Shown piece after piece: positions 53,793 to 64,000 of a stretch of 64,000 bases of DNA. A program made the position numbers and the translations under genes. Every line of letters starts with the position of its first letter. Positions within the stretch are counted from its first letter, which is position 1. The DNA is from an uncultured SAR324 cluster bacterium. Lineage in GTDB: Bacteria > SAR324 > NAC60-12. The notes beneath the pieces were generated by a model that was given only the letters and a program-made list of their open reading frames with translations, searched no databases and was not told the origin of the DNA. Where the stretch lies: the NCBI GenBank assembly GCA_902590435.1, contig CACIWU010000002.1, positions 631 through 64,630 on the forward strand. The letters run 5' to 3'.

Positions 53793-55052
53793 ATGGATAT
53801 TTCGATTCCTGAGGATTTAAGCTTATTAGGAGTTACTCCTAAGGATTTTGAAGAGAAAAAAAATGATTTAGCCAAATCTGAAAAGGTTGAAGTTAAAGAA
53901 AATGATGTCATTTGGGAGCTCTATAATGATTTATTAAAAAAAGCTCTTAATTTTGAGATTTTACAGATGATATACTGGAATATGGCTATTTTTAAGGATA
54001 AACTCGGTCAAAAATCTTTTGAATTTCAACAAAAATCACACCAATCTCGTTTATTGCATCTATTTCATCAAGGTAATACTAAGGTAAAAATAAATGCTAT
54101 AGGTTGTTCTTCTTCTTGCAGAAAACTTCATAACCTAATCATTTCCGTTCCAAATGCGTTAAGGAATTTACCTGTTCCAAATCCTAAGTGTGAATCAATT
54201 TTACATTCATCTAACATGTTTTGTTCTTCAATTTATCAAATTGCAAAAGATAGTGAAGTCGAATCGAAAAAACTATTACCACCTCTTACTAAAATTCCTA
54301 AACTTCCAGAGTTGAATAATTATTCTACTTATTCGACTTCTTATATAGAAGATCTAGGAACTGATAAAACTGACGAACGTTTTTGGAATTGGATTTATTT
54401 GTTAACATTTTTTTTAGGAATCGTATTATTTTTTTATTCACCAATTTCATCTTTAATTCTTATTTTTTGGAGTATTCCTTTCTTCCCTCCACTAATGAAA
54501 CGTTTAAGTAGAGTATTTCCTTTTTTTAAAAAAAAATGGGAACTATTAGGAACACTTGGAATAGGGATCTTAATAGCTATTTTGGCCTGTTTACTTAGTT
54601 TATTATCGGAAAGAAAAATTAATTTCTTTGAGGGAAAAAGTGATCTTCCGTCTTATGAAATTATATTAATTGAGGATATGAGTATAAATACGAGGTCAAG
54701 ATTGAATGTAATTATCACAGCACCAGAAGCTTTAAATTCTAAAGATCGAGCAAAAGTTGTGATGGAAGCGGCTAGAAAAATTCATGCTAAAGAAGTTTAT
54801 GATGATCAAAATAAATTTAAATACGATTATGTTTTTGTGACTTTAGAAGCAAGTAAAAATAATATTGGTCAAGGGTATGTCCTAGCTGAAGCTGAATTTG
54901 CAGCGGACGGGGAAGGATTTTTAGGTCCTTTAAGTAATAGTGAGAACAAATGGAAATGGAATGTTCGTACCTCAAATATTCGAACAAAATCTAATGAAAC
55001 TAAGTCTCTACAAAAAATTAAAGGGACATTGAAGACCTTTTTAATGAGATAA
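53793..55052 (+). CDS. hypothetical membrane protein, co-transcribed with gspF
   Basis: 419 aa. Cytoplasmic N-domain with a Cys cluster (GCSSSC...CESIL...FCSS), 3-4 TM helices, C-terminal soluble domain. 6-nt gap to gspF. Confidence 0.5.
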   Translation: MDISIPEDLSLLGVTPKDFEEKKNDLAKSEKVEVKENDVIWELYNDLLKKALNFEILQMIYWNMAIFKDKLGQKSFEFQQKSHQSRLLHLFHQGNTKVKINAIGCSSSCRKLHNLIISVPNALRNLPVPNPKCESILHSSNMFCSSIYQIAKDSEVESKKLLPPLTKIPKLPELNNYSTYSTSYIEDLGTDKTDERFWNWIYLLTFFLGIVLFFYSPISSLILIFWSIPFFPPLMKRLSRVFPFFKKKWELLGTLGIGILIAILACLLSLLSERKINFFEGKSDLPSYEIILIEDMSINTRSRLNVIITAPEALNSKDRAKVVMEAARKIHAKEVYDDQNKFKYDYVFVTLEASKNNIGQGYVLAEAEFAADGEGFLGPLSNSENKWKWNVRTSNIRTKSNETKSLQKIKGTLKTFLMR

Positions 55053-55058
55053 TTTGAA

Positions 55059-56306
55059 ATGCCTATTTATAAATACGAAGCTTTTGATTCAGAAGGAGTC
55101 TTACAAAAGGGTTCTAAAGATGCTGGTTCTGAATCTGAAGTAAGACAATATCTTCGTAGTAAAGATCTTTTTCCCAAAGAAATTAGAACTAGTCGTTTTA
55201 CTCAAGTAAAAATAGATGGTGGAGAAAAAACTAGAAAAATAAAGCTGCCTAATTTTATCTTTCATAAAACTATATCAATAAAGATACTAACTCAATTCAC
55301 TCGACAATTAGAAGTTTTATTAGATGCAACTATACCTTATGATAAGGCATTTCAACTAATTATTCCCCATACAGAGGACTCTGGTTTCCAAAGTATTTTG
55401 TCAGATGTGCGTGGACGTGTTGTAGAAGGTGGTTCATTGGCGGGGGCGATGGGAATGCATCCCCAAGTTTTTCCAAAAATGTACGTTAGCATGGTTCGTT
55501 CTGGGGAAAATGCAGGAAATTTAGGAACAATTATGAGTCGTCTTGCAAACTACTATGAATCACAAGAACGCCTTCGTTCAAAACTAAAAGGAGCCCTTAT
55601 TTATCCAGCTTTTATGATGGTATTTGGTCTCGCAGTTGTAATATTTATGGTTACTTCTATTGTTCCAAAAATTACTAGTATTTTTGAAAATCAGGCAGTT
55701 GCACTACCTTTGCCTACTCGAATTTTAACTAGTGTAAGCAATTTTGTAGTAGACTATTGGTTTTTGTTAATTTTTGTTATGTTAGGATTTTTTTTAGGCA
55801 TATCATCTTTTTTTCGTACTAAACGTGGAAGAGAATGGAAAGATAAAATGGAGTTAAAATTACCAATACTTAGTAAATTGAGGATCAAAATCATGGTATC
55901 TCGCTATTGTCAGACTCTCGGAACTTTGTTAAAAAGTGGTGTGGATCTAAAAACTTCTCTTGAAATATCGAAGCATGTAGTTGTGAATAAAATTTTTGTT
56001 CAAAAGCTAGATCAAATGATTATAGATGTAAATAATAAGGGCATTCCTCTTTCTGTTGCGATGTCTAGGATCGGCTATTTCCCCGAATACGTTCATCATG
56101 TTGTTACAATTGGTGAGGAAGCTGCTAGGGTAGATGAATTGCTTGAGAAAGTCTCTGATCGTATGCAAGAGGAGGTAAGTTCATTGCTAGAAGCATTGAC
56201 CACACTATTACAGCCAGCTTTGATTTTGGTAATGGGAGGAGTGGTAGGATTTATAGCACTTGCTGTTCTGTTACCAATGCTAAATATGAGCCAGATTCTA
56301 CAATAA
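55059..56306 (+). CDS. gspF: type II secretion / type IV pilus platform protein GspF/PilC family
   Basis: MPIYKYEAFDSEGVLQKGSKDAGSESEVRQYLRSKDLFP... Two T2SF repeats. 3 TM. Confidence 0.85.
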   Translation: MPIYKYEAFDSEGVLQKGSKDAGSESEVRQYLRSKDLFPKEIRTSRFTQVKIDGGEKTRKIKLPNFIFHKTISIKILTQFTRQLEVLLDATIPYDKAFQLIIPHTEDSGFQSILSDVRGRVVEGGSLAGAMGMHPQVFPKMYVSMVRSGENAGNLGTIMSRLANYYESQERLRSKLKGALIYPAFMMVFGLAVVIFMVTSIVPKITSIFENQAVALPLPTRILTSVSNFVVDYWFLLIFVMLGFFLGISSFFRTKRGREWKDKMELKLPILSKLRIKIMVSRYCQTLGTLLKSGVDLKTSLEISKHVVVNKIFVQKLDQMIIDVNNKGIPLSVAMSRIGYFPEYVHHVVTIGEEAARVDELLEKVSDRMQEEVSSLLEALTTLLQPALILVMGGVVGFIALAVLLPMLNMSQILQ

Positions 56307-56372: not shown

Positions 56373-57380
56373 CTACAAGTTAGTCCAGATAGGAATTTTT
56401 GGTGAGTTTTTATTTATCACAGAATAAAGAGAACCTTCCTTTTTACCAATACACTCAATTGACCTTCCATAGTAATTAGGTACAGAAAATAAATCTCCCG
56501 AATTTAGTAAAAAACTACCTTTTTGTCCATCCCCAGACCAATCTACTTTCCAGGATCCTCTATAACAAATGAAAACTTCTTTTTCAGGCCTCTTAAATGA
56601 TTTATATCCTCCTCCTGGTTCAGCTTCAAAAATTAATAGTTCAAATCCATCTCCACCCTGAATTTTTGTTTCTTCAGATCCAATCAAACGATTTATTTGA
56701 ATTGAGCCAAATTCTCCAAGTTTTAAAGGGTGAATTGTTAATGGATTTTTGGAACCGGATCTGTATATTCGTTTCTCCATTTCTTCAATTGAGTAATTAT
56801 CATAATTTGCAGCTTTTGAATTACTCATTGGACTAACCGATTTTGCTCCTTTTGGAATGGGTTTTTTATTTTTATCCCATACGCCATAATCTTCAAGCAA
56901 TACTAGTCCATGATCCTCAGCTGCTTTGAATACTTTTGGAGCCCATTCTACTCCACCAGTATCGTCTCCTCCTAGAATTGTAAAGAGGAATCCATATTTT
57001 TCGCCGACATTTTCAAAACCACGAAAACAATGTGTTGGTATTGAGACTACATCTCCTTCAAATAGAGTTGTCCTGTTCTTACCATCCAACCCCCAATATA
57101 TTTCGAAAGTTCCTTCGTGAATCATGAATACTTCTGCCGTAAAGTGGCTATGAAGAGAATTTTTTATGTGAGGTGGCTGACCTGCAGCCCCGATGTTGAA
57201 TCCATGGGGTTCGCGAATATTGATGAACTGTTCTTTATTTTCAGTTACACCCGGCCCAATTATACTAAAGTTATCTTTAAGATGGCTTCCTGGAGTATGG
57301 GCGTCAATAAAGGCACTTTTGCATGGCATCATTTCACTCCTTCGAACTAATCTTTTTTTTATTCCTGAGTGGGTTTTCAT
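56373..57380 (-). CDS. bicupin protein (N-terminal cupin with metal-binding motif)
   Basis: Cupin motif 1 HSHFTAEVFMIHEG (HxHxxxE) and motif 2-like GDVVSIPTHCFRGFEN. The second cupin lacks the His ligands. Confidence 0.7.
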   Translation of the reverse strand: MKTHSGIKKRLVRRSEMMPCKSAFIDAHTPGSHLKDNFSIIGPGVTENKEQFINIREPHGFNIGAAGQPPHIKNSLHSHFTAEVFMIHEGTFEIYWGLDGKNRTTLFEGDVVSIPTHCFRGFENVGEKYGFLFTILGGDDTGGVEWAPKVFKAAEDHGLVLLEDYGVWDKNKKPIPKGAKSVSPMSNSKAANYDNYSIEEMEKRIYRSGSKNPLTIHPLKLGEFGSIQINRLIGSEETKIQGGDGFELLIFEAEPGGGYKSFKRPEKEVFICYRGSWKVDWSGDGQKGSFLLNSGDLFSVPNYYGRSIECIGKKEGSLYSVINKNSPKIPIWTNL

Positions 57381-57477
57381 GGTTAAAACAGATAAGTATT
57401 ATTAATCAAATCGATCAAAAAAATTAACTACTGAATTCTACTGGTTGAATTTATATTAAGTTTTTATTGAAAAGATT

Positions 57478-58620
57478 TTACCAAAGCTTTCTTGAAGCTA
57501 GACTCGCACCTTTTGCCAGTGATGATAGTTTTTCGTAAGTTATGTCAGCATCGACGGATCCGAAACCAGCGAAAGTGGAAAATCCACAATCTGAACCCGC
57601 AATTACTCGATTTCGTCCTACGATATCTGCGTATCGACAAATTCGCTCTGAAACCAGTTCTGGATGCTCTACAAAGTTAGTTGTTGAATCTAGAACACCC
57701 GGAATCAAAATCTTTTCTTCTGGAATTTTGATATCTCTGAATACTGTCCATTCGTGACTGTGTCTAGGATTTGATCCTTCAAATGAAAGAGCCTGAGGTT
57801 TAGCTTTTAGGACTGTTGGAAGAATTTTCTTCATTTCTATATCATAGTGGTGAGGACCCTGATAATTACCCCAACAGACGTGCAGGCGAATTTTTTCTGA
57901 TGGAATGTTTGTAAGTGCATGATTTAGAGCTTCAATATGTAATTCAATTGCAGAAATAAATTCTTTTTCATTTTTATCTTTGAAAGTTACATGACGACCT
58001 AGAGCTAAATCAGGACTATCAATCTGAATTAGAAAACCTGCATTAGCAATTCCCTCATATTCGATTTTCATTGCATCTGAAAGAGCATATAAGTAACTTT
58101 TGTGATCTTTATAATATTCATTCGGTTGGAACAAAGCAATTACACCTGGCGAAGCTGAATTCATGAATGCTTCAGTGTATTTACTCTTATCAAGAGCATT
58201 TTGGAAATTTTCTAAATCAATTTCAAGAGGTTTCATGTCTTTAACTGAAATCGGACCAGAACAGCGTGGGCGTTTGTATGAAGGGACACCGCCAGATTTT
58301 GACGCTCTTGCAGAAAATTCTGGGAATTCTTCAAGATCTTTTGGAGTGTTTCTTGGGCTGTCACCCTCAAATCCATTCAGTCGATCTTTTATATATGTGG
58401 CATAACTTATTTTACTTTGCTCTCCATCACTGACGACATCTATCCCCGCTTCATACTGCTTTTTTACGACTTCTTTTACAGCCGCAGCTATAATTTCATC
58501 ATATTCTTTTTTGTTTAAATTTTTTCCTTCTTCTCTTGCAAAGACAAGTTTGAAAACTTTTTCAGAACGAGGAAGGCTTCCTACATGTGTGGTTAATATT
58601 CTATCATTACTTAATTGCAT
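57478..58620 (-). CDS. MetE-like (cobalamin-independent methionine synthase C-domain family) Zn-dependent alkyltransferase
   Basis: LTTHVGSLPRS N-terminus. HxC Zn motif (RLHVCWGNY) and distal GSDCGFS. 380 aa, i.e. the single-domain form. Confidence 0.75.
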   Translation of the reverse strand: MQLSNDRILTTHVGSLPRSEKVFKLVFAREEGKNLNKKEYDEIIAAAVKEVVKKQYEAGIDVVSDGEQSKISYATYIKDRLNGFEGDSPRNTPKDLEEFPEFSARASKSGGVPSYKRPRCSGPISVKDMKPLEIDLENFQNALDKSKYTEAFMNSASPGVIALFQPNEYYKDHKSYLYALSDAMKIEYEGIANAGFLIQIDSPDLALGRHVTFKDKNEKEFISAIELHIEALNHALTNIPSEKIRLHVCWGNYQGPHHYDIEMKKILPTVLKAKPQALSFEGSNPRHSHEWTVFRDIKIPEEKILIPGVLDSTTNFVEHPELVSERICRYADIVGRNRVIAGSDCGFSTFAGFGSVDADITYEKLSSLAKGASLASRKLW

Positions 58621-58640
58621 TTTATTTTTTGGTTGATTAA

Positions 58641-59648
58641 TTATTTCCCTATTATCTCCCTGGTACGTTCAAAAATGTCTAGCCCTTGTTGTTTCAGCCA
58701 CCAAGGAATGTCAATTATGACCCAGTTTTCAGAGAGTTTTTCACCTTGACGACGGTATATATCCACCACTCTCATATCTATTGATTTTTCTCCAGCAGGC
58801 ATTCCTAAAAAACCTCCTTTAGGAGTATTTGTTAAATTGGGCCAACCAAAGAATCCGGCATAGTTTCCTTCAGCAAATCTACATATGTGGCCGTTAAAAG
58901 TCTTATCTTTAAGGCCGTTTCTGAATGGATATTGGTGCTGCTTCTGGTAACGCGGGATTGTGTAAGATGCTCCAATACCAGATGGTCCATACCAAATCAT
59001 ATCATCATGCCACGTTTTTGCCAATGAATCTGGAGATGGGTGGTCATTTCCACTTTTATTAAGTTCTGTAAGGGCACCTATCATTCTATTAACTAAATCA
59101 AGTGTTATTTTGGATTCGTTAGGATCCTGAGGATAAAATAATAGTCCGTCATGAGTTCTTGGGCCAGGATAAATGAAAGATGTTCCAGTTTGTGTAGGTA
59201 GTGGATTTATTCCTAATTGATTCATGACGCTAATGATATCACAGAAAAAGCTGCTTTTAACTATTTTGCCATTTTCAATACTATTGAAATCAGCATAGCG
59301 TAGGAAAGTTATTTTTCGATTGGTTGGAAAACCTAACCACTCATTGTCCACGAATCCCATAAAATGACCCATGCTTATAACCCAATCTGTATTGTCGACT
59401 TCACTTGTTCCCGCAATAAAAATATCCTGACGGCGTTGAAGATTTGTCCAAGATGATAGAAAGGGAATCCAGAAAGCTTCAGCTACGTTTTCTGCTCCCG
59501 TTTGTTCATTGAAGGGGAATACTCCGTACCAATGAAAATTTGGGACAGTATATTTTTGGATGACTTTTACAATGTTGTCTTCATTTGCACCTTCAATTTC
59601 ATCATAATAGGATAAAATCAATTTTTTTTGATCTTGATAGCTTTTCAT
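58641..59648 (-). CDS. tandem double SnoaL/NTF2-like (ester-cyclase-like) domain protein
   Basis: Both halves end in the same pattern: FLRYADFNSIENGKIVKSSFFCDIISVMNQLGINP and MRVVDIYRRQGEKLSENWVIIDIPWWLKQQGLDIF. Confidence 0.65.
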   Translation of the reverse strand: MKSYQDQKKLILSYYDEIEGANEDNIVKVIQKYTVPNFHWYGVFPFNEQTGAENVAEAFWIPFLSSWTNLQRRQDIFIAGTSEVDNTDWVISMGHFMGFVDNEWLGFPTNRKITFLRYADFNSIENGKIVKSSFFCDIISVMNQLGINPLPTQTGTSFIYPGPRTHDGLLFYPQDPNESKITLDLVNRMIGALTELNKSGNDHPSPDSLAKTWHDDMIWYGPSGIGASYTIPRYQKQHQYPFRNGLKDKTFNGHICRFAEGNYAGFFGWPNLTNTPKGGFLGMPAGEKSIDMRVVDIYRRQGEKLSENWVIIDIPWWLKQQGLDIFERTREIIGK

Positions 59649-59657
59649 TTTTTATTA

Positions 59658-60707
59658 TTATTTTAATGATATTCCTGTTTCTGAATCAAAACCTTTTTTT
59701 GCTTTGTTAAATTCACGAATTCTTGCAAAGACATCAACACCGATCTGGTCATAGACATCCAGCAAATCAACTAGAACCCAGTTCTCCCTGATTAGCCCAT
59801 TTTCAATTCTCCAAAAATCAAGACTTCTCATGGAAATTTTTTTACCTGATGGAGCAATACCCATCCAACCTCCATCAGACATAGTTTGTATCATGTTTGG
59901 CCATCCTGTAACTCCAACATAATTTTCATCTCCAATGAAATGGCATTTAATCTTATCAACATTTTGGCCTCTGTCAGGCATTGCCGCAAGAAATGGTATC
60001 TGGTGCCAATTGCGAAATCCTTCTACTCCTCTTCCAGTTCCTATCCCAGCAGGTCCATACCAGTTCATTTTTGGATGCCAGAATCTTTCCATTTCCATAA
60101 CTTCGGGACCTCCTTTAGAAGGATGTTTCTTCATTGAGTTAAGCATATCAATTACTATCTTTTTGGATGCTGAACTTGTATTTTCATTATGGGGACCTTT
60201 TTTAATTCCATCTTGTTTTGCTGGTCCGGGAACCTGCCATTCAAGACCTAGACTTGGCGCCATAGGCCAAGATCCAGCCTGAATCATAACTTCTGGTACA
60301 TCCCATAGTGCATGTACTTCAGTCACCTTATTCTCTAAAAAACAATAGAATTCATGGAATCTCATAGCTATTTGATGACCTGTTGGAGGGATATCTAACC
60401 ATGCTTCAACGAATGTACCTGTGTAATAACCACAGCAACCAACCCAATCAATACCTTCTTCAGTTGATCCCCCTATCAAAATAGTGTCCCGTCTTTCTAT
60501 ATCAGGTAAAGCTCTTTGAAGTGGCGCATAAAAGTCATTAAAATAATTTTCTCTTCCAATTTTTTCTCCAAGTGGATAGCAAAAGCGAAATACAGTATTT
60601 TCACTAAAGAGATTTTCTATTGCTTTTCTTAACAGATTTTCATTAAAATCATACATAGTCTTTCTTAAAGGATCTATTAGTACCTTGTTCTTTGAGTGTT
60701 TATCCAA
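59658..60707 (-). CDS. tandem double SnoaL/NTF2-like domain protein (paralogue of 58641-59648)
   Basis: IAMRFHEFYCFLENKVTEVHALWDVPEVMIQAG and ISMRSLDFWRIENGLIRENWVLVDLLDVYDQIGVDVF. Confidence 0.65.
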   Translation of the reverse strand: MDKHSKNKVLIDPLRKTMYDFNENLLRKAIENLFSENTVFRFCYPLGEKIGRENYFNDFYAPLQRALPDIERRDTILIGGSTEEGIDWVGCCGYYTGTFVEAWLDIPPTGHQIAMRFHEFYCFLENKVTEVHALWDVPEVMIQAGSWPMAPSLGLEWQVPGPAKQDGIKKGPHNENTSSASKKIVIDMLNSMKKHPSKGGPEVMEMERFWHPKMNWYGPAGIGTGRGVEGFRNWHQIPFLAAMPDRGQNVDKIKCHFIGDENYVGVTGWPNMIQTMSDGGWMGIAPSGKKISMRSLDFWRIENGLIRENWVLVDLLDVYDQIGVDVFARIREFNKAKKGFDSETGISLK

Positions 60708-60775
60708 ATCTAATCCTAAAAATAATAATAATTTTGTTTAATCTATAAAATACATTTATTTATAAATTCCAATTC

Positions 60776-61276
60776 TCATTTATCAAAAATTTCCCAACCT
60801 TTGCCATTAAATGGGTCTACACCTAATTGTCTCAATACATGAGGAAAATCTACCATCACCCAGTTATCTATAATCTTACCATCTTTAACCTTCCAAAAAT
60901 CCATGTACCGTATTTCCAGTCTTTTCCCAGTTGGCGCGATTCCCATAAATATTCCGCTATGTGTGGCTTCTTGTCTTCCAAATGCAGCCATCCACTCTCC
61001 TTCAGTCAAACGAGCTTCGTCAATACATACCTTATCAGAAAAAGCTCTTTGAAAAGGAATTTGCCAATTTTTTTGAAATTCTTTAAGACCATTCTTAGTC
61101 CCACATCCAGCATTACCTCTCCAACGAAAATTTTTGCTAAAAAAAGCTCCCATTCCCTCTATTTCATGATCATTTAAACCATCTACCATTGATTCAACAA
61201 CCTTTCTTGTTTCTTCGGTTTTGGACAAGTCGTTTCCTTTGGTTAATTCTGCTTGAGGTGGACGTAATCCTTTCAT
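60776..61276 (-). CDS. single-domain SnoaL/NTF2-like (ester-cyclase-like) protein
   Basis: FMGIAPTGKRLEIRYMDFWKVKDGKIIDNWVMVDFPHVLRQLGVDPF. Confidence 0.7.
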   Translation of the reverse strand: MKGLRPPQAELTKGNDLSKTEETRKVVESMVDGLNDHEIEGMGAFFSKNFRWRGNAGCGTKNGLKEFQKNWQIPFQRAFSDKVCIDEARLTEGEWMAAFGRQEATHSGIFMGIAPTGKRLEIRYMDFWKVKDGKIIDNWVMVDFPHVLRQLGVDPFNGKGWEIFDK

Positions 61277-61457
61277 TTCATATCTCCATAAATTATTTTT
61301 GAATTAAATCAATTTAAACCAATTACCATAACTATTATAGTTTTCAACTTTTTTTTCAGAAATTGATTACGATTTATTTTGGAATTAAATATCATTTTTG
61401 TTATTGAAATACAAATGTATTATTTACTTATTTTTCCATTAGAAAAAGATAATTTTC

Positions 61458-61485
61458 TTGAATTTAAGGTGCAGACATGTATAAT
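61458..61485 (+). promoter_or_regulatory. candidate sigma70-type promoter for the ABC transporter genes
   Basis: TTGAAT (61458-61463), 16 nt, then TATAAT (61480-61485). It lies about 120 nt upstream of the strong SD GGAGGTGG and the ATG at 61604. Confidence 0.4.
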
Positions 61486-61603
61486 TCAAAAATCTTTATT
61501 TGCTAGCTCTAAATCAAATTGGAATATGGCAAAGGGGAGTAGTTCTATAAAATATAATAAGATTTAAAATCAATAAATTAATCGTTTTTATTGGAGGTGG
61601 AAG

Positions 61604-62839
61604 ATGAAAATATTATCTAAGTTAGTTTTCACATTGGCGTTAATGTCTTTGTGTGGGCATACCATATATGCTGGTTGTGGTATTAGTAGTGGATCAATAC
61701 ATATTTTGGCAAATGACTTTCCTGCATTACGAACTTATACTGATACAGCCAAAGCTTGCGCAGGTGTTAGTGCTGATTTCAAAGTGAATCATACTTCAGA
61801 ACACAATAATCTTGCAATGGCGGCTCTTTCAGCAAATCCTGCAGAATATTCTGTTAGGATTGGTGCAAATAGTTCTGTTGTACCTTTGATGAATGAGGGT
61901 TTAATTAGACCGATGGATGATCTTGTAGCAAAATACGGTCAAGGATTACAAAAATCTCAGTTAATTACTATAAATGGTAAAGTCATGGCTGTTGCATTTA
62001 TGGCTAATACCCAGCATTTATATTATCGTAAAGATATTTTGAATGAACTTGGGATTGAAGTACCGAAAACATACGAAGAAGTTGTTTCAGCCGCTAAGAA
62101 AATTCGTTCTTCAGGAAAATTGTTAAATCCATATGCAGCAGCTTATAAGGCAGGATGGAATTTGGCAGAAGAATTTGTAAACATGTTCCTCGGATATGGA
62201 GGAGAATTTTTTAAACCTGGATCTGCAGAACCAAATATAAATAACGAAAAAGGTATCTCAACACTCAAAATGTTAAAAACCTTAGCAGGGTTGAGTAATC
62301 CCGATTATCTGACTCATGATTCAGAAGCAATAAAAGTTGAATGGGAAGCAGGTAAAGTTGCCCTTATGACTTTATGGGCATCAAGATCCGGTACTTTACT
62401 AGATGATGAAGGAGATCCAGCAATTACTGCTGCTACAAAATTAGCGGCACCCGCAACTGTTGGAGGAGGGTCTATTCCAGCGGCTACTTTATGGTGGGAT
62501 GGTTTCACTTTGGCAACTAATAGATCGGATAAAGATGCTGAAGCGAGTTTTAAAGCACTTGTTCATGCTGCTACTTCAAAGAAAATGGCAAATGAAGCAT
62601 CAGATCAAGCAGTTTGGCTAGTTGATGGATTTAAACCGGGTCCAAAATCTGTTGGAGTATTAGCTGCAGCTAAGATGGGAGCAAAACCTTATCCAATGCT
62701 GCCTTACATGTCACTTATGCATGGTGCACTGGGCTCAGAAATTGTCGATTTCTTAAAAGGGAAAGAGTCCGCTCAACAAGCACTTGCTGATACTGAAGCA
62801 GCTTATAGGGGAAAAGCGAAAGAAAAAGGATTCCTCTAG
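61604..62839 (+). CDS. ABC transporter substrate-binding lipoprotein (family 1 solute-binding protein)
   Basis: Signal plus lipobox ...LCGHTIYAGC. 411 aa with the two-lobe SBP pattern. Followed by a permease gene. Confidence 0.85.
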   Translation: MKILSKLVFTLALMSLCGHTIYAGCGISSGSIHILANDFPALRTYTDTAKACAGVSADFKVNHTSEHNNLAMAALSANPAEYSVRIGANSSVVPLMNEGLIRPMDDLVAKYGQGLQKSQLITINGKVMAVAFMANTQHLYYRKDILNELGIEVPKTYEEVVSAAKKIRSSGKLLNPYAAAYKAGWNLAEEFVNMFLGYGGEFFKPGSAEPNINNEKGISTLKMLKTLAGLSNPDYLTHDSEAIKVEWEAGKVALMTLWASRSGTLLDDEGDPAITAATKLAAPATVGGGSIPAATLWWDGFTLATNRSDKDAEASFKALVHAATSKKMANEASDQAVWLVDGFKPGPKSVGVLAAAKMGAKPYPMLPYMSLMHGALGSEIVDFLKGKESAQQALADTEAAYRGKAKEKGFL

Positions 62840-62853
62840 AACATTAGATTATA

Positions 62854-62888
62854 GAAAGGTGGAAATTTTGCCACCTTTCTGCTTTTTA
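62854..62888 (+). terminator. rho-independent terminator/attenuator after the SBP gene
   Basis: AGAAAGGTGG, loop aaattttg, CCACCTTTCT, followed by GCTTTTT. Confidence 0.7.
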
Positions 62889-63336
62889 ATATTTTTTTAT
62901 TCGTAAAAAATAAAATATTTTTAAGCATATTTAGATTTGCCAAACTGAGTTTTGAACAATATTAAATTTAAAAAATTTTTTAATGTGAGTATTATTTGTA
63001 AATTCATGTTTTAGTTGATGGGTAAGCAAATATATTTAATTTCGAAATTTGGTAATTCCTTTTATCTTACTTTCTATCTCTTTTCTGTCTTTAGATACTT
63101 TTTGAACACTCCTTTTAAAAACTTAATTTTGTGTGCTTTTCTTTATAAAAACTTGATTTTAAAAGATAATTATTTTTTAATCGGTCCCCGATAAGTATAT
63201 TTTTTGAATTTCGTTATTTAAAATTTTAGATTCAAAAACTATTTGATTACTAAATTAGGAATATCAATCTCTGTTCAAATAATACCAAATTTTTATTTTC
63301 CTAATTTAAATAAAAATTATTAATGAAGTTTTTCTA

Positions 63337-64000
63337 ATGGGACATAAAACATTTTTTTGGTTCATGTTTCCCACTTGTGTGGCAATGGTATTTTTTATCG
63401 CAATACCTATAGTATCAATTTTTGTACAATCTCTTTATGTTGAACATCAGAAACCTTTAATAGAAATTGAGACATGCGATCCATTTGGTTGTAAAAAGGA
63501 GGTAGGAGTAGATGTTGAAGCTTTTGCAGAGCTTAACAAAGAAAAACCTCTAGGAAGATTTAATGGTTTAAAAACTTACACCGATAGGAACCATTTAGCA
63601 TTTGAAGAATTGTCTGAAGGTTGGAAAAAATCAAAAAACTTAAAAGAATTTTCAGAAGTTTTTTTGAATTTACCTTTTTATAAGGCATTAATTTTTACAT
63701 TAACCTATACATTTTTTGTTACACCTTTTGTAATATGTTTAGGTTTTATTATAGCACTTTCCATTAATACTTTGACTCAGAAAATAAGAGGTCCCGCAAT
63801 TTTTGCTACAATTCTGCCAATGATTGTTACTCCTTTAGTTGGTTCTCTTGTACTTTTCTGGATGATTGATGCTGAAGGTATAATTGGAGCAACAATACAA
63901 TATTTATTTAATGATCCATATTTGTCTTTGAAAGCTTCAACTGCCCTTACTTGGGTTACTTTGATAATTTATGGCATTTGGCATCATTCTCCTTTTGCTT
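63337..64000 (+). CDS. ABC transporter permease (MalF/UgpA-like), 3' end outside window
   Basis: Absent from the ORF track (no stop in window). ATG at 63337 reads MGHKTFFWFMFPTCVAMVFFIAIPIVSIFVQSLY...(periplasmic loop)...LPFYKALIFTLTYTFFVTPFVICLGFIIALSIN..., open to position 64000. Confidence 0.8.
   Translation, partial: MGHKTFFWFMFPTCVAMVFFIAIPIVSIFVQSLYVEHQKPLIEIETCDPFGCKKEVGVDVEAFAELNKEKPLGRFNGLKTYTDRNHLAFEELSEGWKKSKNLKEFSEVFLNLPFYKALIFTLTYTFFVTPFVICLGFIIALSINTLTQKIRGPAIFATILPMIVTPLVGSLVLFWMIDAEGIIGATIQYLFNDPYLSLKASTALTWVTLIIYGIWHHSPFA

Follow-up and report, generated by a model that had tools for sequence, protein, structure and literature searches.

The last part of a 64,000-nt stretch of DNA from an uncultured SAR324 cluster bacterium (the window, G000:C2:631-64630; the host, G000, is a metagenome-assembled genome (MAG) of 1.51 Mb, 54% complete) carries genes for a solute importer that diverge from five genes encoding three SnoaL-type proteins, a MetE-like zinc enzyme and a bicupin. 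These genes belong to a module that is real, conserved, mobile and not described in the literature searched. The window holds a truncated, apparently repressor-less SAR324 copy of it, namely the enzyme arm and the start of the transporter arm of a larger gene set cut off by the contig end. Judging from the sequences, we think it likely that the stretch is part of a mobile module that breaks down a small, polar compound carrying a methyl group. The features of the cluster are as follows (aa, amino acids; ORF, open reading frame).

56373..57380, minus strand: bicupin, 335 aa, last gene of the enzyme operon (ORF; Pfam Cupin_2/Cupin_1)
57478..58620, minus strand: MetE-C-like zinc enzyme, single domain, 380 aa (ORF; Pfam Meth_synt_2, PF01717)
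58641..59648, minus strand: tandem SnoaL/NTF2-fold protein, two domains, 335 aa, dSnoaL335 (ORF; Pfam SnoaL/SnoaL_2)
59658..60707, minus strand: tandem SnoaL/NTF2-fold protein, two domains, 349 aa, dSnoaL349 (ORF; Pfam SnoaL/SnoaL_2)
60776..61276, minus strand: single-domain SnoaL protein, 166 aa, SnoaL166, first gene of the enzyme operon (ORF; Pfam)
61277..61603, no strand: divergent control region, 327 nt, between the genes for SnoaL166 and the solute-binding protein (SBP)
61458..61485, plus strand: predicted promoter-like TTGAAT-16-TATAAT before the SBP gene (pattern match and alignment)
61604..62839, plus strand: family-1 (CUT1-type) SBP, 411 aa (SBP_bac_1; signal peptide; GGAGG ribosome-binding site)
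62840-63336: AT-rich, gene-free spacer, 497 nt, from the SBP gene to permease 1
62852..62881, plus strand: predicted hairpin with an 11-bp stem, then a U-run, directly after the SBP gene
63337..64000, plus strand, continuing to 64365 past the window: ATP-binding cassette (ABC) permease 1, 342 aa (BPD_transp_1, PF00528, in the full-length protein)
from 64374, plus strand, cut by the contig end at 64816: ABC permease 2

The seven ORFs, their sizes, the minus-strand gaps of 9-97 nt (68, 9, 20 and 97 nt, going from SnoaL166 to the bicupin) and the 327-nt divergent region agree with the original prediction, which had been made from the letters alone. So do its fold assignments (SnoaL three times, MetE-C-like, bicupin and SBP), since every fold assignment among the window proteins exceeds the Pfam gathering score. 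Its remark that no regulator or pathway-defining enzyme is present is correct for the window but merely reflects the contig ending at 64816, only 816 nt past the window; congeners carry both.

Co-conservation of the gene set

In a scan of one genome per species, the MetE-like gene was found in at least 593 species genomes from five or more phyla (Pseudomonadota, Chloroflexota, Acidobacteriota, Actinomycetota and Bacteroidota), four cultured strains among them (Pseudohalioglobus sediminis NY5, Parasphingorhabdus marina DSM 22363, Sphingomonas yunnanensis YIM 3 and Microbacterium sp. SA39). Homologs of the protein number in the thousands, and those in Gammaproteobacteria and Chloroflexota are 64-67% identical. 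We fetched 80 loci and counted partners by tblastn near the MetE-like gene in the 37 with complete 10-kb flanks. The bicupin was found in 30 of these, a HisD-like dehydrogenase in 28, a tandem SnoaL protein in 26, a LacI regulator and a short-chain dehydrogenase/reductase (SDR) in 24 each, an HpcH aldolase in 20, an SSF symporter in 19, a TonB receptor and an alpha/beta hydrolase in 18 each and an Amidohydro_2 protein in 14; the bicupin, HisD-like and tandem SnoaL genes occurred together in 24. In three distant genomes (Gammaproteobacteria and Chloroflexota) the same genes recur, with 3-5 copies of tandem SnoaL beside the HisD-like, MetE-like and bicupin genes; an alpha/beta hydrolase, an SDR or alcohol dehydrogenase, and an RraA-like or HpcH aldolase are added to them. 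The importer is either a TonB receptor with an SSF symporter or a CUT1 ABC system (5 of the 80 loci had an ABC importer); across taxa only the transporter type changes.

The original prediction had staked its case on the genes being conserved together elsewhere; they are kept together across phyla and also co-vary within the genus. Its view of an uncharacterised cluster matching no known pathway likewise stands, as the literature searched and the curated family libraries map the genes to none described. The papers searched held no description of the gene combination, of catabolic genes for mycosporine-like amino acids (MAAs) or gadusol, or of a substrate-fed MetE-like enzyme.

Closer to the host, we compared 18 genomes of the genus (G000 included) and three of other genera in the same family (G018, G019 and G022). 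Placement of the host in the SAR324 clade is borne out by its GatB, which shares 74-76% identity with proteins from MAGs of 'SAR324 cluster bacterium'. Four congeners (G005, G011, G015 and G017) keep the layout of SBP, permease 1 and permease 2 diverging from dSnoaL349, dSnoaL335, in some cases LacI, MetE-like and bicupin, with permease 1 orthologs at 86-93% identity; a LacI-family gene stands between the dSnoaL335 and MetE-like genes of G005 and G017. In the transporter operon of G005, permease 2 is followed by a third tandem SnoaL gene and then by genes for a HisD-family dehydrogenase and an SDR; G017 likewise has a third tandem SnoaL there. In G018, of another genus, SBP, both permeases, HisD, SDR and LacI follow one another, divergent from SnoaL166 and two tandem SnoaL genes. 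This SnoaL166 ortholog is 79% identical to ours and holds the same position, and none was found at the corresponding place in the four congener loci. Genes for the HisD-like dehydrogenase and the SDR most likely lie just past the end of the present contig.

Two loci of the genus differ in other ways. In G017 a gene for a pyridoxal-phosphate (PLP) enzyme of Cys/Met metabolism lies inside the cluster (L012, 7123-8298), split into two ORFs of 145 and 226 aa by a possible frameshift or as a possible pseudogene, and adjoins LacI and an Amidohydro_2 gene; a homocysteine-related PLP enzyme here fits the methionine link proposed below. In G016 (C221:2032-6544) the MetE-like gene and the bicupin gene are about 4.5 kb apart, vs. 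97 nt in the window. Farther afield, some Gammaproteobacteria have genes for a TPR-sulfotransferase (7 loci, one of them L030, 2705-4576) and a sulfatase (4 loci, one of them L085, 17302-19545) beside the module; recurrent neighbours in others are an amidase (4 loci) and a RidA/YjgF-like protein (3 loci). Such neighbours may hint at substrate decoration or imine chemistry.

The MetE-like zinc enzyme

Methionine synthases are recognized by the zinc ligands H641/C643/E665/C726 and the homocysteine-binding residues S433/E484/D599 of Escherichia coli MetE (Price et al. 2021, PMC7857596). Aligned to solved MetE, the window protein places H247, C249, E281 and C345 on the four ligands, and S15 (VGSLP), E67 (DGE) and D201 (QIDSP) on the IGSFP, HGE and QIDEP motifs. 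Within a 10-sequence family alignment the zinc ligands are invariant, except for E281 at >=90%, and the three homocysteine-binding residues are conserved (invariant or >=90%). The HxC...C ligands that had been noted in this protein, like the HxHxxxE of the bicupin, are therefore present and conserved family-wide. With zinc and homocysteine residues all kept, the best reading of the protein is a putative folate-independent homocysteine S-methyltransferase, which would be fed by the pathway's own substrate.

The closest comparison is with the MesA-MesD core methionine synthases and the MetE catalytic domain (PMC7857596): all have one Meth_synt_2 domain (~340-380 aa; 380 aa here) and no folate-binding N-terminal domain, and share the same four zinc ligands and three homocysteine-binding residues. 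Unlike them, the present gene belongs to an importer-linked catabolic cluster and is accessory in its genus; it has no corrinoid-protein or MesX (DUF1852) partner, its relationship to them is distant (29 bits to the MesD structure 3RPD), and a conserved, family-specific loop (approximately residues 84-131, GFEGDSPR..PKDLEEFP..GGVP.Y.RPRC) sits where MetE binds folate.

Intact methionine-synthase-type residues, and the occurrence of the gene alone in 6 of the 37 full-flank loci, would also be expected of a housekeeping core methionine synthase lying beside unrelated genes by chance. We hold this very unlikely. The gene is present in just 7 of the 18 genus genomes (one as a fragment), while most of them, G000 included, have a different MetE-like paralog (about 28-30% identity); it co-occurs with bicupin, HisD-like and SnoaL genes across phyla; and it falls far under every curated methionine-synthase cut-off (PRK04326, 113.6 bits vs. 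406; TIGR01371, 37 vs. 930). The short paralog (in G000, C14:14688-15557; 28% identity) is probably the housekeeping core methionine synthase.

SnoaL proteins and bicupin

The three SnoaL proteins score 47.8, 84.9 and 75.7 bits with PF07366 (cut-off 28.4). The model predicted for dSnoaL349 is confident (predicted local distance difference test score, pLDDT, 92.9), and its C-terminal domain has a conserved WYGPxGIG loop together with D297, N309 and D314. The only solved cases of two NTF2 domains working together are the polyether epoxide hydrolases Lsd19 and MonBI/MonBII, which share with the tandem SnoaL proteins the absence of a cofactor; they differ in sequence (9-12% identity), in domain arrangement (template-modelling (TM) score 0.3, root-mean-square deviation ~17 A) and in context, theirs being biosynthetic and the present one catabolic.

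As the tandem SnoaL proteins have no two-domain structural neighbours besides these hydrolases, the resemblance can be counted toward another proposal, thiol-dependent opening of an epoxide or other electrophile, with the MetE-like protein acting as an epoxyalkane:coenzyme M (CoM) transferase and SnoaL as a limonene-epoxide hydrolase. The folds are indeed shared (the transferase EaCoMT is MetE-like, limonene-epoxide hydrolase NTF2-like), and one database record labels a close MetE-like homolog '2-hydroxypropyl-CoM lyase'. Nonetheless a search for ComA (PF02679), needed for coenzyme M synthesis, which was positive in 3 of 14 reference genomes, found it in 0 of the 18 genus genomes; genes for an alkene monooxygenase or an epoxide pathway are absent from the congener loci, from the three distant loci and from the families that recur in the 80 loci; the thiol pocket has the homocysteine-type S/E/D residues; and the superposition on Lsd19 is poor, as given above. 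We thus rate this chemistry highly unlikely. The original prediction had offered import and opening of an electrophilic or methylated molecule: the methylated half fits the zinc and homocysteine residues, whereas the epoxide/CoM half fails on the ComA count, the absent alkene and epoxide genes and the thiol pocket, and fold searching leaves the limonene-epoxide-hydrolase analogy a bare fold resemblance.

Taken singly, the SnoaL domains have polyketide cyclases as their nearest structures (SnoaL, AclR, IdmH and ChaU-type), such that the cluster might instead be biosynthetic, with SnoaL-type cyclases and a methyltransferase-like enzyme tailoring a secondary metabolite. This seems extremely unlikely, since no polyketide synthase, nonribosomal peptide synthetase or precursor genes are in the cluster in loci of this genus, and the module is always tied to importers and usually also to LacI, aldolase and lactonase-like hydrolases.

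In the bicupin, a 26-sequence alignment showed a conserved H77-x-H79-x3-E83 motif in the N-terminal cupin along with an invariant H59; the histidine of motif 2 is replaced by an invariant R120, and the C-terminal cupin is without metal ligands. By comparison with the oxalate decarboxylase/quercetinase class, then, the fold and the motif-1 HxHxxxE are present, and what differs is the R120 in place of the motif-2 histidine and the ligandless second cupin. A sequence search of the PDB found no match to the bicupin. Searching with its predicted model (pLDDT 90.5), we found neither a KduI-like nor a gentisate-dioxygenase-like identity indicated in the top 50 fold matches.

Importer, dehydrogenase and accessory enzymes

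The importer satisfies a CUT1-type layout, with a family-1 SBP (SBP_bac_1, 67 bits), permease 1 in PF00528 and the G017 ortholog of permease 2 in PF00528. No ABC ATPase gene is in the cluster of G005, G015, G017, G011 or G018; CUT1 systems often share an ATPase encoded elsewhere. That the SBP is a lipoprotein, as had been suggested, is plausible, although its lipobox, YAGC, is non-canonical. Its nearest solved relatives are the sulfoquinovosyl-glycerol binder SmoF (E 2e-12) and trehalose/maltose binders (E 9e-11), which do not discriminate; we attempted to name a ligand from them and found the two too close to call.

With SmoF as the best solved SBP relative, and with the module's HisD-like protein closer to the sulfonate-pathway enzyme HpsN (8V35, 365 bits) than to the best-scoring HisD structure (263 bits), organosulfonate catabolism deserves consideration: the HisD-like enzyme would be HpsN, the SBP a SmoF-type binder, and the substrate 2,3-dihydroxypropane-1-sulfonate (DHPS), cysteinolate or sulfoquinovosyl-glycerol. 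HpsN carries the signature G-R-Y-A/S-H, which includes the sulfonate-binding His126 (PMC11382572). At this position 48 of 48 cluster-linked HisD-like proteins read G-[KR]-[YF]-P-[LM], with the histidine replaced. Moreover, no desulfonating enzyme family is among the annotated recurrent neighbours, the SmoF match is barely better than those to trehalose/maltose binders, and a sulfonate route leaves the homocysteine methyltransferase without a role; we consider this route quite improbable. The likeness to HpsN-based DHPS clusters (hpsN with hpsO/hpsP SDRs and a transporter; CpHpsN 8V35, PMC11382572) lies in a HisD-family dehydrogenase nearest HpsN that comes with an SDR, an importer and local regulation. 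The differences are the missing sulfonate-binding His motif, the lack of SuyAB, Xsc or CuyA neighbours, and the MetE-like, bicupin and multiple SnoaL proteins, which have no counterpart in DHPS catabolism.

Accessory enzymes of the module in other taxa have GarL/HpaI-type aldolases, PcaD-type enol-lactonases and fuconolactonase-type amidohydrolases as their nearest curated families, all far below cut-off. In outline, the extended modules resemble gallate/protocatechuate 4,5-cleavage and non-phosphorylative sugar-acid pathways, in which a compound is demethylated, oxidised, opened at a ring or lactone and cleaved to pyruvate by a 4-hydroxy-2-oxo-acid aldolase, and they hold a metal cupin, a PcaD-like hydrolase of enol-lactonase type, an Amidohydro_2 protein (LigI/lactonase-type) and an HpcH/RraA-like aldolase. 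They differ in that no module protein reaches the curated cut-off for those enzymes, that demethylation would use a zinc/homocysteine enzyme rather than a tetrahydrofolate (THF)- or Rieske-type O-demethylase, and that the regulator and transporters are sugar-type (LacI, CUT1, SSF). The SAR324 version has no lower-pathway genes in the loci read.

A possible pathway

The substrate is probably a small polar compound bearing a methyl group. The steps that follow are drawn from family membership, at the level of enzyme class. The CUT1-type ABC importer (in most other bacteria the TonB receptor and SSF symporter) would take up the compound; the MetE-like zinc enzyme would activate L-homocysteine as a thiolate, to which the substrate or an intermediate would donate an activated methyl (of an onium, a methyl ester or a vinylogous/enol methyl ether), giving methionine without folate or corrinoid. 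A zinc thiolate needs such an activated methyl. The three SnoaL/NTF2 proteins, cofactor-free, may catalyse hydrolytic, dehydrating or isomerising steps, the single N-terminal metal site of the bicupin may serve oxidative cleavage or isomerisation, and the HisD/HpsN-like dehydrogenase, with the SDR also part of the module, would oxidise CH2OH to COOH. In larger versions, lactonase-like hydrolases and the HpcH/RraA aldolase would bring the skeleton to pyruvate.

Several observations weigh against such a methyl-harvesting catabolic module. No HisD-like, SDR or LacI gene turned up in the G000 assembly, which is 54% complete; the six full-flank loci noted above have the MetE-like gene without any partner; and conserved homocysteine residues are no proof that the methyl comes from the pathway substrate, as there could be another donor. 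Fold searches were also generic, giving for the bicupin generic bicupin neighbours alone (TM ~0.55), and for the tandem SnoaL proteins generic matches alone, domain by domain to single SnoaL-type cyclases.

One more specific substrate class has an outside chance of being correct, namely methoxy-cyclohexenone or -imine sunscreens (MAAs, gadusol) or a similar methoxylated C7-cyclitol, for which the module would be a bacterial route. Tandem SnoaL paralogs would hydrolyse the imine- or enamine-linked amino acids, the MetE-like enzyme would move the vinylogous-ester methyl to homocysteine, the HisD-like enzyme would oxidise the ring CH2OH to carboxylate, and the bicupin would cleave the resulting aci-reductone-type ring; such chemistry fits every conserved enzyme. 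Wide carriage by soil, peat and sediment MAGs somewhat weakens this reading and argues for a more ubiquitous substrate. If sunscreens were nonetheless the substrate, the MetE-like protein would be a fifth, substrate-fed family of core methionine synthases.

A gene set in hundreds of species, including abundant lineages of ocean plankton, very probably marks the flux of a common dissolved organic compound, one missed by current carbon-cycle and annotation schemes. The MetE-like enzyme would tie this compound to methionine supply without folate or B12, which is relevant to vitamin- or sulfur-limited marine bacteria. The HisD-like gene may be counted in surveys as the DHPS marker hpsN, so that estimates of sulfonate cycling could be inflated. 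Cultured carriers, the binding protein, the repressor and its candidate operator provide handles for finding the substrate.

Patchy distribution and mobility

Within the genus the module genes occur together in G000, G005, G011, G015, G016 and G017. G007 and G008 have fragments of them, and no match was found in the remaining ten of the 18 genomes, one of which is 92% complete. This all-or-none presence in 8 of 18 confirms the patchiness that the original prediction had proposed to check.

A maximum-likelihood tree of 91 MetE-like proteins unites the six genus copies as one clade (SH-aLRT 100), sister to two MAG sequences that also have an ABC importer. Other genera of the same family are scattered: G018 and G019 pair beside Burkholderiales, with a Chloroflexota-rich clade adjoining, and the partner of G022 is a Bacteroidota sequence. 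This scatter, together with the differing chromosomal sites described next, indicates that the module has moved horizontally and is a mobile unit.

The synteny hemH-argJ-DUF4875 protein-gspF is kept in the genus, with gspF present in 16 of 18 genomes and the genes before it in the loci read. What comes immediately downstream of gspF varies, and among the genomes compared this slot holds the cluster in G000 only. The slot has type-I-secretion-like genes in G005, G004 and G001, followed by rseP-dxr-cdsA in G005 and G004, whose contigs extend that far, and it is short in G013 and G003; six MAGs have a contig break beside gspF. The cluster of G005 and of G017 is on a contig other than that of gspF. 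On the far side, rseP was not found in the G000 assembly, which at 54% complete is uninformative on this point. In the window itself, 53793-56306 encodes a DUF4875-domain membrane protein and a gspF/pilC-like gene, a pairing seen in the four loci that reach upstream. The G005 slot contains about 1 kb of degenerate tandem repeats with a 21-nt period (heptad-type coding; L120, 8390-9020 and 10760-11090), probably the gene of a repetitive surface or secreted protein.

A LacI repressor and its candidate operator

A multiple alignment of the divergent regions yielded a CG-centred imperfect palindrome, TGAATACGTATGTA, as candidate LacI operator; a simple palindrome scan of the intergenic regions had given no shared operator, the motif appearing only through the alignment. 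It has two copies in the divergent region of G017 and of G005 and one in that of G015. Both G005 and G015 also carry a variant upstream of the MetE-like gene, and the motif occurs nowhere else in the 20-kb loci of these three genomes. A LacI gene together with an operator at the promoters was found in G005, G015, G017 and G018, and not in G000. In the congeners carrying them, LacI would control both promoters through this operator.

Allowing <=2 mismatches, neither the 64-kb window nor the G011 locus contains the candidate operator anywhere, and G000 and G011 are the very two genomes whose clusters have no LacI gene. Where the congener operator overlaps the promoter spacer and -10 element, the window has at the homologous position a near-consensus -10 element instead. 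LacI gene and operator thus appear to have been lost jointly in G000 and its closest congener, G011, so that expression of the cluster in G000 is probably constitutive or under different control; with the assembly 54% complete, a LacI gene may lie elsewhere in G000.

Transcription signals and composition

The TTGAAT-16-TATAAT at 61458-61485 matches the consensus at 10 of 12 positions, and had been called a good promoter. The sequence is present, but such sites are no commoner than chance in this AT-rich DNA (31 vs. 26.7 +/- 5.3 in shuffles), and the match by itself therefore proves little. No terminators are predicted inside the enzyme operon, which together with the 9- and 20-nt gaps fits its co-transcription.

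G+C content of the enzyme genes is 36.4%, vs. 33.0% for the rest of the window. The suggestion that this block is richer in G+C is weakly true: 3 of 103 equal-sized windows are as high, and G+C at third codon positions is not raised. We rejected G+C as a sign of foreign origin, being too weak on both counts.

The hairpin at 62852-62881 (-19.4 kcal/mol, z = -4.9 for the predicted fold) is likely an intra-operon terminator or attenuator. The spacer between the SBP gene and permease 1, at 497 nt here vs. ~100-300 nt in congeners, might contain a further promoter or a small RNA.

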